A DNA stretch of 64,000 nt from NCBI GenBank assembly GCA_037379345.1, contig CM074512.1, positions 62,021,597 through 62,085,596 on the forward strand, written 5' to 3'. A model generated the notes under the pieces. The model was not told the DNA's origin, searched no databases, and saw only the letters and a list, made by a program, of their open reading frames with translations. Below, one piece after another: positions 29,945-47,900 of this stretch. Each line of letters begins with the position of its first letter. Position 1 is the stretch's first letter. Source of the stretch: Perna viridis. Lineage: Eukaryota. The position numbers and the translations under genes are program-made.

Positions 29945-32900
29945 ATGAGGCAGAGTCGTTCTCCATCTAACTTGAACACATCACAGGGTAGAAAATTCGA
30001 AGATGCAGTGAAATATCTAACGAGTGGTAAAATCAGATCTCTACACTTTTAATGGCAATATATTTGTTTCAGAAGTTCTTTATTATTACATCATGTACAT
30101 GTAACTAGACATGCCAGAGATTGCAGAATATGTACTTGTCAAGGAGTAGTTCTGGCCAGCAAGTATTTCTAGCCAACCAGTTTTTCATTCTCTCCTGTGA
30201 AACAAATTAATGCCCAAATTATAAGAAAAAATATATACAATGTAACAGATTACTGATATTTTGGAATTTTTGCTCACCTAAATGTATTTCCTTGATTGTC
30301 ATTGAGGAAATACATTTAGGTGAGCAGGTTGGCGAGAATTGCTTCTGTCTTGAAAATGGCAACATATACTCTCTGACCAGTACAGAGTATAGTATTAATA
30401 TCCTAAAATCAAATACATAATATTTTTCTCCAATTTTCTCCAATGGAGCCCTGAATATATACTGTAGTACGTGAGCTGAGGTACCCCCCTTGTGTGCACC
30501 CCCCCCCCATCAACCAAAATATGATTTTCAGTACCCATATACCTCCCATTCACATCCTTTTGTTGCCAAAAAATAAACTGAAGCATTTTTTGGCTACTTT
30601 TTATACCTCATTTAGGCAAAAATCAGTTTTTAAAGTTTTTTTTTTATTCTACGAACTTTTTCTTTCTACAGAAAGAAGTAAGCTGACATATGTATGTATC
30701 AACATGTAGCCCAATGTCTCAGTTTCACAATGGTATCTAGAAAGTTGCAGTAACACTAAGGGTTTTGCGATAAAATAAAAAATATGTACCCCCTACCCTG
30801 CCGAAATATTGCTTAAATTGACAAATTTTTCAATGTCAAAACCCCTAGAGTATTAATGATTCAGTAAAAAATAGCTTATTTGATATTTTCTGTTTAGTAT
30901 GATCACAAATTATACTTTTGGGTTTTTTTGATGAATTTTGGCAATTTTTGTAGTCAGAATTTATCAAAAATGCTAAAAATGGGATTTTCGATTATTTGGT
31001 CAAAAGTCACATAAATTGGACTCTACAAGTTTTTACCCGACCAAAACGTCTCAAATTTGATATCATTTGATAAATAATTTAATCGTCTACATAAATGAAC
31101 CACGAAAAACTAATTTTCAAAAAAGGATTTTCCAAAAATGTTAAAAATATTACCCCTACCTCTAGAAAACTGGTCTCAGTGTCAAACTTAATTCTCTTTC
31201 ATAGCGTACTGACATTGTAGAACTCATGTTTTAGGCATTCCTAATTGGAATGATGATGAACCCAAAATTTCTGATCAATTCAGGCCCTTAGATTTTCCTT
31301 TTGGGTGACAATTACTATAACATAGCATAACAATGTTGTTTACCTGTTTGTTGAACTAAAATAGTTATGATTTTAATGTCATTATAAGAACTGATCTTTG
31401 TCTTTATTATCCAAGATGGTTGGCAAGATTGCATGTTTACATTGTGAGAAAAACACATTTTAGTTAGGTGACCTATTAATGACTTTATGGGTACTACATC
31501 ATCAGTTCTCGATAGGGATATGACTTTCTGTATGGAGGGCATGAGAGACATAATTGGAAATTGAAAATAAAGAAAATAAATAACTCAATATCTTTTCATT
31601 GATATTTTATATTTTCAGGGTCCAGTGAATGTTATATTGATTAACTTTAATATGGCTAAAAAATTTTAATCACATCTTATATCTTTTAATTTGCTGTGAT
31701 ATGGTGTTCCAAGCATAGAAGCAAAGATATACAAGGTTATTTGTATTATAAATCTCCCAAAAGTAATAGGCTTTTCATATTATTGCTCTTCTCTTAAAAC
31801 GTCAATAATGTCCTGACATTTTGAACGTTTTCTGGTAAGAAATATTAAGATATGACCAGTACTGAGTACCATACAATTTTTTTACTGACATAGCCATGCC
31901 TATATCCTGACTGCGCATGACTGCTGAATATATGACCTACCACTTGCAATAAAATTTGTTTACATTCAAAATGTGTGTTGGGAGAGGTAGGCACTTAAAA
32001 TATTAACTTTTTAAGTTTAAAAGAAAGGTAAAATAAAGGGGTACTAAAGTTTATTGGTATTATACATACCTTTATATGCAACATAGTGAAATTAAAGCCT
32101 GATAGAAGTGAGGAAATGTTCAATAGGTTAAAATTCTTTGTGAATAGATGAAACGTGCGATTTCTCATTTTATGTCATATTGCCTATGTGCATCGTTATC
32201 GAGAACTCATGACTATCGAGAACAGATGAATGCACGATACCCAAGTCAAATAAACAACATACCCTTGAATAGTCCTTTTTCATATTTATGAAATGTGGGC
32301 CATTTTAGCAAGTATTCCAAAGGGACAAACTCACCAACATATGACAACCTGGTATGCGCAGCTACAAAAAGTCAAATATTTGAAGTCTACTGCTGTTCAT
32401 TGCTCCATTGGACAGTAAACCAGTCTTTTGGATTGGACAGTTACTTCCCTTTACTCAAAATAAAAAAAAAACAAAGTTGGGAATATGTAAAAAGTCTATT
32501 AGACATCAAAGCTCTTGCAGTTGACATTTAGGTGTCTAAAACTTCTTTTTATTCTTAGTGATAGATAATTAAATGTATTTCTCCCTTACATATTTTAATT
32601 TCTTTAACAATACAATCCAACTTGTAATGTTGTAGATTAGATCAAATCAATAAAAATATCCATATGAATGGCTTGCTAATGGACTTATCTATAATCTGTC
32701 TTCCTTTATTAATTATGATGTTCTTGTATTTTTCATAAAATATTTGAAATGAAAAAAAGCAATCCAACTAAGAATTTTCTTTTTTTTTGTAGGAAGAGAA
32801 TCAATTCGTGTCCGAGGTAACATTCAGCTCCAAAATTGCCTTGAGAGTTTAGAGAATACGTCAATTACCAAAGGACTGTCTCCAGAACACATCACAGATT

Positions 32901-35900
32901 TAGTAGATGTAATTGGCACTTGTAAACATGGTAGGTCAACTGCTATGTCTCTTGTCATGTTCACATTTCTGTGAAAAAATGCGTGACCAAATGTTAGATG
33001 AAGGTCTAGATTACTCACAAAGTCAATTATGAGTGGATATACATTTTGTTGAGGTGCAGTTATTTATTTCGAATTTTATTTAGTCAGCTTATGCACTTAT
33101 GAAAACTTATATACAAATGTATTTTGTAAAGAGAGAGAACAATTGACACTGGGAATGTTTAGATCTAAAGCATTCCTGATTATAAATTGATTTGAAGTAA
33201 AGTTGTTTCAATTCTTTACTTATTGTATATCGTTAAATTGTAATATATTGTATATCGTTAAATTGCTGTGATAGTGTTATTCTTCAGTTACATGTATTTG
33301 ATGGAGACCTCTAACTATAGAGTCAAATGACTATGATTTGGTATGTAGTTCTCTGAAAATGTTTGTGGTATAAGGGACCTTTTTTTTTCATACTACATGT
33401 ACATATATAGTGTAAGAACAATATTTACTAGGTTTATTATAAGTACATAAACAAAGTTAATATCCACAGGAACCAACTTCCTGATTTCTCTTATAAAAAA
33501 AAACAAGGAACAGCTCTTTAAATGTTAAAGAAACAAGAAATTTATTCTTTTTTTATTAATCAAGCTAGTGTAATGATGTTGGATTTCTTTTTTCTTGCAG
33601 CTGAGTCAGTTAATACCAAATTGATCAAGTTCCTCATTCCAGAGACGTTTGTTCCTGAGAAGGCAATAATCAGATGTGTGTCCTACATGTGTACTAATAA
33701 ACCATCTACAAATATCCAGGTATAAAATGTGTGTCCTACATGTGTACTAATTGACCATCTATGAATAATTGAAGCTATCATTTTGACAAACCTCAATAAT
33801 CAAAGAGGCTTAAAGCATGTTTTTTTTTTTTTTTAAATCAGTCTGAGTCTAAAAGTTCTTCCATGTTTTAACAAAAACCACAATTTAGCCCATACAACTT
33901 GAACCAAATTATTGTACATATCTGTATTTAATAACTGGTTTCTACATGTAATAATGTCATTATGCTTTGACCAATATACATGTATGTTTCCACACTTTTT
34001 AGATGTTTGATATTAATCAGTCTTAACTCTAAAAAATATAAGTAGGAATAATTTGTATACTGGTACACGTTATACAGGTCGCATGAAAATGTCAAATTAA
34101 ATTCTGTCTTTTGTTAATATTCTTGCTATTTTGAAATGTGTAATAAAGAAAAATGTTGAAAATTGATTCTGAAAGATAAATATGTAACTGAATTTACCAA
34201 CCACCATTACAACTACTGAAAACTAACTTATTTTCGTGAGTGATTTATTTCGCTAATTTTGCAAGCAAGAAAATAATTGTACATATATCATTGCAAATTA
34301 GTCATTTCATTACAAACTACATAATGAAACTGAATGTTAGTTGGTAAAAAATAGTAGCGAAATTGAATTGCTATCCAGAAACAAAGTTGGTTTACTCTAC
34401 AATATAGTTGTATTTTGTAGTGTCTCTTACTACGTTGGATTCTAGTAGTATATGATTATATAGACAGGAAAGATGACATACATAAACTCTATGGTCTTAT
34501 CTTCTACTTCCTGGATAATCAGACTATGGTAAGACTGAGTTACAGTGAAACCTGTCTAAACCAAACTTCTGGGCTTTAAAATTATTCAGTTTAGACAGGT
34601 GTTTGGTTTACCAAGGTTTAAAATACATTTAAACTGATATAAATTACTTTTAAAAGTGTCTGGTTTAGACAGGTTTTCAGATTATTCAGTGTTTGGTTTG
34701 AACAGGTTTCAATATATTTTACTTGTTTAATTGTTTCCCCAAAACATTCTTGTTGACAGCAAAATTGGTAAAATGGATCCATCTCATTTTACATTATCAT
34801 TGTACCTTTAACAAATGCTGTCTTCACATATTGAGATAATCTAGGACAGAGATAGTTATAACTTTTCCCTATTGTTTTAAGTTTAATAAGGCCACACTTA
34901 AAATAATGTGTGTTTCCCCTTACCAGACCTTAGCTCTTGGATTTGGATAGGTATGTAGCGAAAATTTTTTTTTTCCCCAAGTTCATATGAATCACTTAAA
35001 ACCTTGTCCACAACCAAAGAAGTGGAAAATCTTTCCTTGAAAATCATAACAAAAATCTTATCAGAGAATGGCAATAAAATTATTTGGAAAGGGCAAATTT
35101 TTATGGGTAGGGAGATTAGGGGATACAAACTTAACTTTAATTTTGGCCTAATACAGTTGAAAGATTGCAGGGATGTTAAAATGAAGTTACTGTCAACTGA
35201 TATAAGAATTGTTTGAAAAATAGTATAAATACTAACCAACATACATGTACATGTATGTGAAGACAAAAATATAACTTAATTACATATACGACACCACAAA
35301 CCTCATGATATATTCCTGACTAGAATCTATTCTGAGATATTTTTTTCATTTACCCCATTCCATGTGATATATTTTCAGATGCCATATGTTTGCCATTTGT
35401 TATTCTTGTTGACGAGGAAAGAAGATGTGAGACTGTTTAGAGTTAGGAAACTATTGAACCTTCAAGACAAAGTTGTAAGTTTTTAGCAATGATTTGTAAA
35501 ATGATGCAGGTCTAAAGAATGTCAAATAGGATGTCAAGAATGTTGTGTTATATAAACATGGTGTTTTAACAGATGTCTCTATGGGTAGCATTATTATGGT
35601 GGCTTCTTAAAATACATGTTCATCACATATCTTTATATTTTGTATTTGTGAAAAATTAGTATTGAATGGTATTATGGCATCTTTTGTTGATGATTTTAAA
35701 GATGGGGAACTATTCTCTTTTTAAGTTACATCTATTGAAATGCACCCAGCCACCAACAAAATAATTTCTGTATCAACATAATATTTCAGATCAATTAAAA
35801 AGTACCTAGTGAATTCGAGCCATATGAGTTGTGATTGAGAACATTAATCCACAAAACTCCTTGTTATACTTTATTCATGGCATTCATTTTACATTACAGG

Positions 35901-41900: not shown

Positions 41901-44900
41901 TGTAGCCTATATTTATTTAAAAATCCCTTTACATAATTCAAGCAATGTTATTTTTTCTTGGAATGCTGTATATTACAGGATAAATTTTTATGGGTTTAGT
42001 AAAATGGTGTACAAATTTAAACCCAACTTTCAATGACACCTTCATTTTAGAACCATTGTCTCTTACTTAGGCATTCTGAAGGATTTCCAGCCAAAATATT
42101 TCTTATAGATTATCTATGGCGGATGTCGAAATAAGTACTCTTCCTCTGGCACGCTGCAAACAATTTTCATGACAGCCAAGTCAAAGGATGTTTGCCTGCT
42201 ATGCCACCTACTTTTGGATGTTTTTTTTTTAACTTATCATAAGGGCAAATAAATTTCACTCTAAGCCAGTTTATTTTCAGGAAAGCTTGCCTACTTGACC
42301 AGCTGGGCAACTTTCTTATTTCTACCCCTGTATGGATAGATTTCAGTTTTTGTATGATTGTAGGAAGGTATTCCTGCTGTTGATAAGTTCTTAGCAAGAT
42401 TTTTACACCAATGGAATGGTGAGGATTTTCGTGTACATATATTTAGACTGATAACATACCACAGAATCTGTTCATTTCATAGTAAGTATAAATTATATAG
42501 TACTGACTGATTTAATCATATTTTTATGAACAGTTTTTTTCCTATGAATAGTCAAAAGGGCACTAACCCTTTCAAGATCTTTAAATTACTAAATTGAAGT
42601 TATTTTAATTCAAGAATTGACAACCATGCAAAATTGAAATAAATCCATTTTATACGTTTTCATAGTAAATGTAGTTGATGCTTTATTGTACGAATAGTAT
42701 TCAAAAACAATTTTTAGAAATATCCTCATTATTACATGAATTTATCAATATAAAGTTTACATTAAAAATATTAGAGCCTTTAAATACCATTTTGTGTAAG
42801 AATTTACAGGCCATGGATGGCAGGCACATCATTTTTCTCAATTTGGTATTTTTTTCCCCCAAAAATACAGTGAAACTTCTCCAAACCGGCCATCACTGGG
42901 ACAAGAAAAAATGGCCAGTTTATAGGGATGGCCAGTTTTGTGAAAAATAGCAATTCATTCTAAGAGCTGTTTCCATTAGTGTGTTCTATAACCTTACATC
43001 TTGTCAGTTTGTTGGTTGAGGCATGTTAAATGCAAATTCAAAACTTTTGGCCTTTTATTACATTTCAAAGCTTGCATCATTTGTAAATGATTTGATTTTA
43101 CAAACGGTACTGCCAACAAAATAATGTTCACGGTTTTGAAAGAATGTGTATTAAAGATCACAGGGCTATTGGTGGTATACTATTAATTATTTGTATTGTT
43201 TTCATAAATTACCAATCGAAAAAGTCTAATGATTTCACCCCTATGTTGTTTTTTCTTGGGCACATGTCACATTAATTGACTGTTAAAAGATCGTAAAGAT
43301 CATACTATTAAATGACCCCGGTTGCCTGACGTGTGTACACACCAATTAACAGCCAACCAGTGACAAAAGTGATTAAATTTGTTGTTTAAACTACTGTCCC
43401 CTTCAGTTATTATCTGTCCACTGATGTAATGCAAACTGGTCAGTGAATGAATTAATGATTACGTAATATTACATAATCATTTACAGTTTTGTTGACACAT
43501 TTATTATGGTGAACAATAACCGGGCGGCCGGAATTGAGAGGTTGTTTTTATTTGAAATATGTAACTAAAACTGTGAAAAACCAGCGGATATATGGTTTTA
43601 GGGGGTTGCCAGTCTATGGAAGACAAAACACAGATGTGTTAAGGTACATTGGGCGGGACTTTTGAAAACGGCCTGTTTGAAGGGAAGACCGGTTTTCTGA
43701 GGGTCCGGTTTGGAGAAGTTTCACTGTATATTCAGTGCATCTAGAGGTTAACCAAAATGCTATTTTATTTAAATTAATCCTGAAGCATCTGTGAAGTAGA
43801 TATTTTATACTGCTTACAATATAGGAAATAATGTGGGAAAAAATTTTCCTACCATTTTTCCATAGTGCATTTCAACTAAATTTGACCAATCTATATCTTA
43901 AAAAGGCAAACTTTGTAGACACTTTGATGGTTATTTCTGGAGATTATGAGGTAGAAATACTTGGATAATGCATTAAAATCTTATGCACATTTTGCCTGAT
44001 TCTTAGACAGAGAAGTACTTTAAAATTATTTTCACATAGCACATATATGAAACTGAGAATATACAGCCGAAAAAGATATTTTCACCCTTTCCTCTCATAT
44101 AGTATGTTACAATGTACTACATGTGTTCATAACCTTTTCAGGACTCCATGACAATGTTTTAGAACCATTAAGAAAACTTTATTTTTGTACATCAGTGTTT
44201 TTTAAGGTAAGTTACTCAATATTTCACACTATCAAATATTTTTTCAATATTAATTTGAATATATTATAAGCAGATGACATTCTATTGATTCTGTAGAATT
44301 ACTGCAAACATTGAGGGAAACTGACCTAGTTTTGGGGTAGTGTGTACACCTTGCATGTGGGAGGTCAAGAGTTGGATCCATGCCGAGTGCCACCAAAGAC
44401 TTTAAAATTTGAAGTTACTGCCTATCCAACAAATACACAGTATTTAGGGGAAAGAGTGATAAATGTTTGGCTCTGATTCTGAATGTGTCAGAGAGGGGTA
44501 ACATGCCTACCTGCAGGGTGTAGCTACTGTCTGATTCTGAATGTGTCAGAGAGGGGTAACATGCCTACCTGCAGGCTGTTGCTTCTGTCTGATTCTGAAT
44601 GTGTCAGAGCGGGTTAACATGCCTACCTACAGGATGTGGCTTCTGTCTGATTCTGAATGTGTCAGAGAGGGGCAACATGCCTTCCTACAGGCTGTGGCTT
44701 CTGTGAGCTAGAGCAATAAAGATCTGGCTCAGGGTGTTGGACTAGTATAAAGCAGGATCTATTTGATTGGTCAAATGTTCTTGTCCTGTAGTGCATGATA
44801 TAGGACATTAAAACAAAATTCTAACATGACATGTTTCAAAGCTCTTTAGACTACAGACATGGTAGAAAAATGATAAACACATGACCAACATTTGTTGTAA

Positions 44901-47900
44901 TTCAGTTCAAAATTATGAAGAAAATAGTCCTATTAGAATCAAAATAAATCATGGAAACTCCATTTTATTATTGTTTTACTATGGGCCGGCCTATTTTGGA
45001 CCAATCCATTATTGAGGTATAAATATTTCCTTCATCACTTGTTTTTCTTGTATTTATCCAGTGTCAAGTGATTCATTGTCTGACTGGACTTCTACACAAC
45101 ATGGCTGCATATGAATGGCAAAGAGTACTGGATAAAAACCAGAGGCAGGAAGAGAATGGGGAATCTGGTATTGTACTGTAAGTATCCACTAAGCCATAAA
45201 GAGAATGGGGAATCTGGTATTGTACTGTAAGTATCCACTGAACCAGAAAGAGAATAGGGAATCTGGTATTGTACTGTAAGTATCCTCTAAGCCCTAAAGA
45301 GAATTGGGAATCTGATATTGTACTGTAAGTATCCACTGAACCAGAAAGAAAATAGGGAATCTGGTATTGTACTGTAAGTATCCACTAAGCCATAAAGAGA
45401 ATGGGGAATCTGGTATTGTACTGTAAGTATCTACTGAACCAGAAAGAAAATGGGGAATCTGGTATTGTACTGTAAGTATCCACTGAACCAGAAAGAGAAT
45501 AGGGAATCTGGTATTGTACTGTAAGTATCCACTAAGCCAGAAAGAGATTGGGGAATCTGGTATTGTACTGTAAGTATCCCTAGGGCCAGAAAGAGAATAG
45601 GGAATCTGGTATTGTACTGTAAGTATCCACTAAGCCATAAAGAGAATGGGGAATCTGGTATTGTACTTTAAGTATTTCTTAAGTCAAAAAGTGAATGTGA
45701 TTCTGGTACTGCAAGTATCAACCAGACTTATGGAAAATTCAACATATGTGTTCAATCTCGAGTACCTCCAACATTAATAATGAAATGGTTTTGTCAGAGC
45801 ACAGATATGAACAAAAAATTCAAGTGTTTTTCTTGAATTAAAAAAGAATAAGTCTTGTAATTCATTCAAGAAGAGGTGAGAAAATCTAGCAAAAGATAAG
45901 TGAAAATTAACAATACGTACAATTCTTGATTGTATTTTCACTTCTTTAGTAGGTTTCTAACCTTATGGAATACCATTTTCTCATTACAGATCTTATCTGT
46001 TCCATGAAGAGACAGAAGAATTTGATGGAGTGGTGACCATTCTTGATCTAGTACATTACATCAATGAAATGTGTGTCTTAGGGCAACAGATAGAAAACAA
46101 CCACAATCTCCTAGTACATGTACACTTAAACTTCATGGAACTGGTAAGGGACTTGTCTAATTTCTGTAGGGACAGGGGTTAAGCAGTTTTATCTCACACT
46201 TGTTGGACCTGCACAAGGAATATTTGGTGTCAGAATTGGAGGGCAAGACTTGATACTTTTATGACACATTAACATTGCTATTCTACAGTTTAACCTAACT
46301 CGGTGACCACCAGTAATAAGCAATAACATGTCTTAAAAGACTAAGTTTAAAATATCCTTATTAAGTGCTTTCTATGTAAATTCTTATGTGATCAGGGTTT
46401 TGCTATCCCTTGGAATGTTACCTAAAACGGGTTTGACTGAACACAGTGCCTGTAGTAGAGGATGTTACAATGGAATACCTCACAAAGTAAATATTTTACA
46501 TGAGACACAGTTACCGATATATTTTAAATTGAATACATTTTTGTGTGTGAATTTAAAAGAACTGTTTCAGATCTAGAGGATGATATATATCAAGGTGGTT
46601 AATTTGGGCAGTTTCTTATTCATAAATCATTGTGTAGCGGTGGAGAAAGTAAGGAACATTGGTAGACCAACAACACATGCTAATTGTCCAGTAATGTGCT
46701 ATTATACTTTGTTTGTTTATATTAGATATCAAACACTTTTGTTTGTAGATACTTTTCTAATAATTTGAAAACTCCTTTTATGACAATATGGACGAAACAT
46801 CAAAATAATTTGACAATGATCACATTTGTGGTAGAATAGAATCAACTTAAGGGATAGAAATGTATTTCTCTGTGTTAAAAAGTGGAAAGCAATCCTTATC
46901 TTCTACTTCACTTAAATAAATCATAGCAGGCATATCTAAGTTACTTAAAATTTAAAATGACAAGCAAGTCCTTGCGACAATTACGATAGCTCTGTAGTCT
47001 GTGATGTGTGATTAGTCCGACACTAACAACTACTATAACAAGATTTATATACATGTATAACAGTTATTATGAATTTTGTTTTATCTGTGAACATATTTTT
47101 CCAATTTATCTAGGGATTATTCTTAAGTACTTTTTCTAATAATTATGAATTACGCTGTATAGATTTCTGCTTGTTGATCTATAATATGCATGTTTTGTTT
47201 TTTTTTAACAATTGATAAGAGATACTATAAAGGTTTAAGGATAAAAAGAAATTATTATATTTTAGGTGATATTTACTTACAAAATAACATGTTACTCCAA
47301 TTTCTATTTTGCTTAATTTTCAGGTTGCAAGTTTGTTTACACGGTTCCGACTTCCTGTTGTACCATTTCCTGGTAAAGAGATATTTGTCAGGACCTTCTT
47401 CTTAGATAATGCCATAGGACCAGCTCGTATATGCTCTATACTGTCCATGTAAGATCAGGTTATTTAAGAAAAAAGTCAACGATACTCCATTTTATCATTG
47501 TTTTACAATGGGCTAGCTATTTATGTCCCATTGTTTTACCCCAAGCGATAGTGAAGGGTTAAATAACAACATAAATGCCCAATCCATGGCAAAACCATGA
47601 TAATATGGAGTTTCCGTGATTTATTTTGATTCTAATAGGACTTGTTTCTTCATGTTTTTGAATAGACTTAGCCTATTTTTTGCACAAAAGGGCAACTGCT
47701 TTGGAGAAAAATTCCATTGTGACATCTGTAAAATTTGGTAAAATTTATCTATGAAGAAGACTGTTATACATCTATGACGTTTTACAACAGCTTTGAAACA
47801 TATATTAGAATTCTCTGTTGAATTGACTTCATCTGAGACAATGCTATAGACCTGGCTCGTACCATATCTGCCATAAACTTATTTCTTCTCTTATTAAAAT

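Follow-up and report, generated by a model that had tools for sequence, protein, structure and literature searches.

In the window (the whole 64-kb stretch of DNA that was analyzed), a minisatellite confined to a single locus appears to have been copied from the end of coding exon 13 of a CENP-I gene together with the adjacent splice donor, the first of the resulting donors being the one used and the nine other intact ones probably being silent passengers that play no part in regulation, a view to which we assign a probability of about 85%. The architecture is that of a junction-spanning minisatellite, of the type described for the human F7 gene and for the amphioxus "mirages," and CENP-I is a further case of this published kind: the tandem units fall in the range of 10–100 bp, the real boundary lies in the first unit, the donor is reiterated, the array occupies one locus, and both of the runs that yielded a spliced contig (X13 and X14) show the authentic donor, the first of the series, as the main one.

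The CENP-I gene and the array at exon 13

As to the identity of the gene, homology to CENP-I/Mis6 extends over the length of the protein. The exon query retrieved two proteins among 68 candidates, one of them named centromere protein I, from Mytilus galloprovincialis (P0002; Pfam PF07778), and tblastn of P0001 and P0002, along with splice-site inspection, open coding sequence and Pfam, delineates 18 coding exons on the forward strand (29950 to 50260, both ends approximate), 17 of them from position 32793 on and the first near 29950–30025. Joined together, coding exons 2–18 form 690 codons with no stop, and an alignment of the product with the Mytilus protein shows 75.5% identity over 691 columns, which identifies the organism as a mussel-like bivalve. 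When six of the exons were scanned singly with Pfam, one matched, exon 2 (CENP-I family, E 0.0015, below the curated cut-off). Coding exon 13 (45062 to 45177, 116 nt) is delimited by its AG/GT ends, by homology to P0002 and by RNA-like contigs, and its last 28 nt make up the exonic part of unit 1, while coding exon 14 (45990 to 46143, acceptor AG at 45988–45989) is delimited by tblastn, contigs and the open coding sequence. The exon number 13 and the acceptor 45990, as given in an earlier sequence-only reading of this DNA, are therefore right if coding exons are counted from the one near 29950–30025.

The array itself is recognized by TRF as a minisatellite at 45146–45675, across the boundary of exon 13 and intron 13 on the forward strand, with a period of 49, 10.8 copies, 89% matches and 0% indels. 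Both TRF and the motif positions bear out the proposal of the sequence-only reading that the 49-bp unit consists of 28 nt of the exon end and 21 nt of the intron start, and that ten donors follow each other at an exact 49-nt spacing, with an eleventh mutated: GTAAGTAT is found at 45178+49k (k=0 to 9, 45178 to 45619), forming ten identical ACT|GTAAGTAT donors. The authentic one is at 45178–45185, and the nine pseudo-donors downstream (45227 to 45626) share its 11-mer, while outside of the array the same octamer occurs only twice on the forward strand of the window. The eleventh donor is changed from GT to TT at 45668 and is followed by a degenerate twelfth unit, about 80% alike, that reaches to about 45722, and these decayed 3' units (45640 to 45722) are recognized by alignment, with unit 11 and the 3' edge also present on a contig of run X2. 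Units 1–10 differ from each other by 1–9 substitutions in pairwise comparisons, nearly all of these outside of the donor, and fall into two main types, partly alternating. A 7-nt word, AACCAGA, is located in exon 13 just upstream of the array (45137–45143) and recurs at some unit ends and at 45720–45726, and this word, being present on both sides of the array, is a possible seed for slippage. Micro-exons within the array were considered as well: AG sites exist inside it, with 11–13 pyrimidines in 20 nt, whereas the two genuine acceptors on either side have 13–16, and the contigs show no micro-exon form.

The exact 28-mer has nine matches in the 723-Mb genome, all nine within the CENP-I array, BLAST with four units returns the CENP-I locus only, and a pattern search agrees on a single locus; elsewhere in the genome, one 19-mer matches the unit with one mismatch. 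Exon 13 aligns with residues 469–511 of P0002 in a colinear and gap-free manner up to the donor, from which we infer that the junction gave rise to the repeat rather than the reverse, the 28 exonic nucleotides being, by this comparison, ancestral coding sequence. The opposite direction, in which an older repeat, intronic or mobile, would have supplied the exon end, is highly improbable: while the region corresponds to a variable loop of the protein, the exon end has the same length and similar residues as in Mytilus, and the unit is found nowhere else in the genome by either pattern or BLAST. The array would have been born when a tandem duplication of about 50 bp, a frequent event in this genome, straddled the donor, and it would have then grown and shrunk by slippage or unequal exchange, with the decayed 3' units left behind. 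Both the decayed end units and a unit variant of run X2 that the assembly lacks fit ordinary minisatellite turnover.

That the array is genuine, and not an assembly artefact, follows from unit-unit junctions being present in contigs of two other runs, X2 and X10, from two studies. The perfect 49-nt spacing with no indels is the one observation found that could speak for an artefact; against it stand the substitutions that distinguish units 1–10, the contigs of both runs that cross unit boundaries and the presence of the 3' edge in run X2, and the probability of an artefact can be considered negligible. One contig of run X2, of 1878 nt, continues from unit 11 into unique intron sequence, with a single difference, and the variant unit seen in this run is missing from the assembly. 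Taken in one register, the X2 contigs listed sum up to about 15–16 times the flank depth versus 11 units in the assembly, this being a ratio of depths and not a copy number, and one that is halved if the flank contig represents one haplotype. The number of units is likely polymorphic between individuals. Run X10, guessed to be RNA, presents array contigs at depths of 18–264 over 45150–45675 and an intronic contig at a depth of 13 (46159–46230), and neither flanking exon is among its contigs, although such holes prove nothing; this run may represent DNA, a reduced library or a filtered data set. It was set aside as evidence for expression, and the ratio of 25–33 units that it produces is not trusted.

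Donor use in assembled RNA and in known junction arrays

Contigs matching 45619–46230 were searched for in sequencing runs whose RNA status is a guess, none of them being on record as RNA. In two of the four runs (X14 and X13, two studies, depths of 4 and 12), one contig each joins the shared 28 nt to 45990, and the 30 letters ahead of these 28 nt are those of positions 45120–45149, located upstream of unit 1 only, so that the assembled mRNA is spliced from the donor at 45178. The junction of donor 1 with 45990 is thus supported as the main form in the assembled RNA, its exclusivity being beyond the reach of contigs. The contigs listed for 45619–46230 include none from a downstream donor; contigs drop rare forms, and nonsense-mediated decay (NMD) would reduce their level. 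The raw reads from the RNA runs X21–X23 (19–25% of each), placed on 44720–45226, are too sparse to inform, with four reads on exon 13, from one of the three runs, and none across the donor. Most of the reads placed there fall on a repeat at about 44907–45008, in intron 12, which is short and dispersed, has inverted parts, and attracts many RNA reads from other loci. Run X13 carries another organism label; its zero differences in 45640–45667 and 45990–46145 point to the same species relabelled or to a very close relative.

Reading past donor 1 produces GTA CTG TAA, as had been noted before, and this in-frame stop (45179–45181, about codon 484 of about 720) is contained in the products of all nine downstream donors. 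The exons predicted for the ten donors measure 116, 165, 214 and so on up to 557 nt, and all ten donors match the U1 consensus at every position from +1 to +8. In the exon-definition model, splice sites are paired across the exon, and the ten donors differ under this model because their predicted exons run from 116 to 557 nt. The description of the ten as equal donors is therefore valid for their identical local sequence but not for the exons that they would define.

The closest parallel is presented by the 37-bp VNTR of intron 7 of the human F7 gene, whose first unit extends from exon 7 into intron 7 (Borensztajn et al., 2006; PMC1557585). In the minigenes of that paper, donor choice was unchanged when monomers were deleted or added (1–6 and 8–12), splicing occurred solely at the functional donor lying farthest upstream, and only a perfect consensus competed. 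F7 and CENP-I are alike in that the first monomer lies over the exon-intron boundary and is followed by identical pseudo-donors (5–9 copies in F7), and in that the most upstream donor is used, for CENP-I as judged from the contigs. They differ in the exonic part of the unit (4 nt in F7 versus 28 nt in CENP-I), in the intronic donor part, which in CENP-I matches U1 fully and better than the F7 site does, and in the stop, which is contained in all of the downstream CENP-I products but is absent with two of the F7 pseudo-sites; finally, one array is mammalian and the other molluscan. The suggestion that the array is a natural test of first-donor choice holds in that the X13 and X14 contigs use donor 1, but it is not new, as the F7 VNTR has been dissected likewise.

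Other examples are summarized in the introduction of the same paper (PMC1557585). The arrays of human 6-16 and of CBS intron 13 are those in which two pseudo-sites are used besides, and those of LMNB2 (100 bp, 10–15 copies) and of PDGF intron 4 (81 bp, 16–18 copies) are those in which the first donor only is used. All four, as described there, share the architecture of CENP-I, with similar copy numbers, and 6-16 and CBS may differ from it in the two additional sites, the CENP-I contigs displaying donor 1 only, with rare forms being invisible in contigs. One example from invertebrates is the "mirages" of amphioxus (Adh3 and the globins BflGb6 and BflGb9), tandem duplications of exon-intron boundaries involving both donors and acceptors, which are unstable in length and have decayed boundary units, with regular splicing undisturbed (PMC3087553). 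Like the CENP-I array, these are from an invertebrate, derived from a boundary and decayed in the edge units, in a different phylum. A literature search, with subscription journals largely outside its coverage, returned nothing published about the present repeat, about repeats in CENP-I or about bivalve junction arrays, and a case of a reiterated donor was not found in the accessible part of a paper on associations between repeats and splicing (PMC10078293).

These precedents also bear on the question of leakage. The downstream donors 2 and 3 could be used at a low fixed level, unselected, with their products lost to NMD, the total copy number being irrelevant as it is the nearest copies that compete. 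Such leakage is possible but on the unlikely side: 6-16 and CBS provide a precedent, at least as the introduction of PMC1557585 presents them, donors 2–4 would define exons of 165–263 nt, and contigs are blind to rare forms, while no such contig is seen and the first donor only is used in F7, LMNB2 and PDGF as far as the same source describes them. It is also compatible with our preferred explanation, from which it differs in degree only. In the passenger explanation, the donor nearest to the upstream acceptor would win at any copy number, as both the F7 case and exon definition suggest, and the products of occasional slips to donors 2 or 3 would contain the stop and be removed by NMD, making the array cheap to keep; NMD would then act as a safety net, not as a control. 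For gene annotation and for junction calling from short reads, the array is a pitfall, as a read that covers no more than 28 nt of the exon end is compatible with all ten donors.

Donor-spanning arrays across the genome

Arrays of a period of 20–150 and at least three copies were surveyed in evenly spaced 10-kb stretches of the genome, and 66 of these were counted in 100 stretches, a base rate of 66 per Mb. A heuristic scored an array as donor-spanning if the first unit contained a good donor, with an open stretch and an acceptor ahead, and a mirror version was employed for acceptors; the CENP-I sites served as the training set for the matrices, the thresholds were fixed before and reused for both samples, and the stretches L019, L020 and L026, which are not random, were left out, along with arrays less than 330 nt from a stretch end. 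In the first sample (56 arrays, 97 stretches), there were seven donor and no acceptor passes, the donor excess over a flank-swap control being weak (P 0.085). The other sample, fetched later (45 arrays, 80 stretches), had five and one, a contrast not significant alone (P 0.22). Over the pooled 177 stretches, 12 of the 101 arrays passed for donors versus one for acceptors (binomial P 0.003). The 12 donor passes compare to 3.9–5.3 expected (P 0.0008–0.008), i.e., 2–3 times above the controls, while the single acceptor pass is not significantly below the 3.7–4.2 expected (P 0.08–0.12). Extrapolation of the excess suggests about 3,000 donor-straddling loci, or low thousands, the count being rough and including false passes, because Pfam backs only two of the 11 candidate donor exons scanned, out of 12 (TTL and ADAMTS_CR_2, E<0.001).

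One example is a 63-bp array of five copies comprising the 3'-terminal 47 nt of an exon of the TTL family and its donor (L032 5856–6173; Pfam E 4e-13). Another example is the LRRC49 gene, in a stretch that is not random, having been fetched for a chance 19-mer match, where a minisatellite of 51 bp and 7.3 copies lies over the donor (L026 5989–6356; G000:C3, about 15.937 Mb), with CAG|GTAAGT in most units, and where homology to three bivalve-type LRRC49 proteins stops at the first donor. Likely donor-spanning arrays are further found at L102 6240–6548 (cadherin-like exon, with a weak Pfam match on the neighbor exon) and, on the reverse strand, at L176 9126–9267 (ADAMTS_CR_2 match), and likewise, by the heuristic, at L062 8298–8542, in a gene that we take to resemble THADA, at L147 3530–3641, and at L178 6938–7058 on the reverse strand. 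The acceptor mirror case (L142 2959–3200) consists of six copies of about 39 bp, each with a pyrimidine tract, an AG and an exon start, ahead of an open 163-nt exon that only the last acceptor copy adjoins; this exon has no Pfam match and presumably resembles DNA-PKcs. That the usable site is the first one among donors and apparently the last one among acceptors is consistent with pairing across the exon.

The survey also bears on the proposal of the sequence-only reading that the copy number tunes CENP-I through NMD, by determining what fraction of the transcripts is bound for NMD and hence the dose of the protein. This proposal, which would make the array a splicing-associated tandem repeat (spl-TR) with regulated unproductive splicing, fared poorly, and we consider it very unlikely. 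The stop that every downstream donor would include, with five exons still to follow, the apparent variation of the array between individuals (the X2 variant unit and the rough depth ratio of about 15–16 versus 11 units) and the invariance of the donor octamer all point in its direction. However, the invariance is within chance (0 octamer changes, P 0.07–0.29 within the array), so that conservation of the extra donors beyond the neutral expectation was not found there, the eleventh donor is decayed, no downstream-donor contig is seen, copy number was without effect in the F7 minigenes of PMC1557585, and unrelated genes of the same genome, such as LRRC49 and a TTL-family gene, carry such arrays. 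If true, tuning of this kind would mean that the amount of a kinetochore protein is under a heritable control, but none of the present results points in this direction. A broader version, in which donor-copying minisatellites, at roughly 3,000 loci and with donors above chance and far above acceptors, form a genome-wide class of copy-number-variable NMD leaks that at CENP-I set the kinetochore dose allele by allele, is speculative and decidedly unlikely.

Some observations do weigh against the nine donors being mere passengers. Plain chance explains the excess of donor-straddling arrays over the controls incompletely. The octamer is unchanged in ten units and matches U1 in full, pseudo-sites are in use in 6-16 and CBS, and the evidence from F7 is mammalian, while the CENP-I junction is known from contigs only, of depths 4 and 12, with their RNA nature guessed and minor forms dropped.

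Overall, the single CENP-I locus matters little, as human and amphioxus genes have already provided published cases of this architecture and of the rule that the first donor is used, and the bias of donors over acceptors (12 versus 1 of 101) is a by-product more useful than the locus itself. If a genome-wide annotated count confirms it, position-dependent splice-site choice could be tested in an invertebrate on the many natural replicates that mussel genes would provide.

Two further repeats are present in the CENP-I gene. The last 51 nt or so of coding exon 3 are duplicated directly behind its donor (33669–33767), in two copies of period 53, with 46 nt aligned and six mismatches, the copy being without a donor and the pair being missed by TRF. 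Intron 12 contains a minisatellite of 58 bp in four copies (44472–44704).
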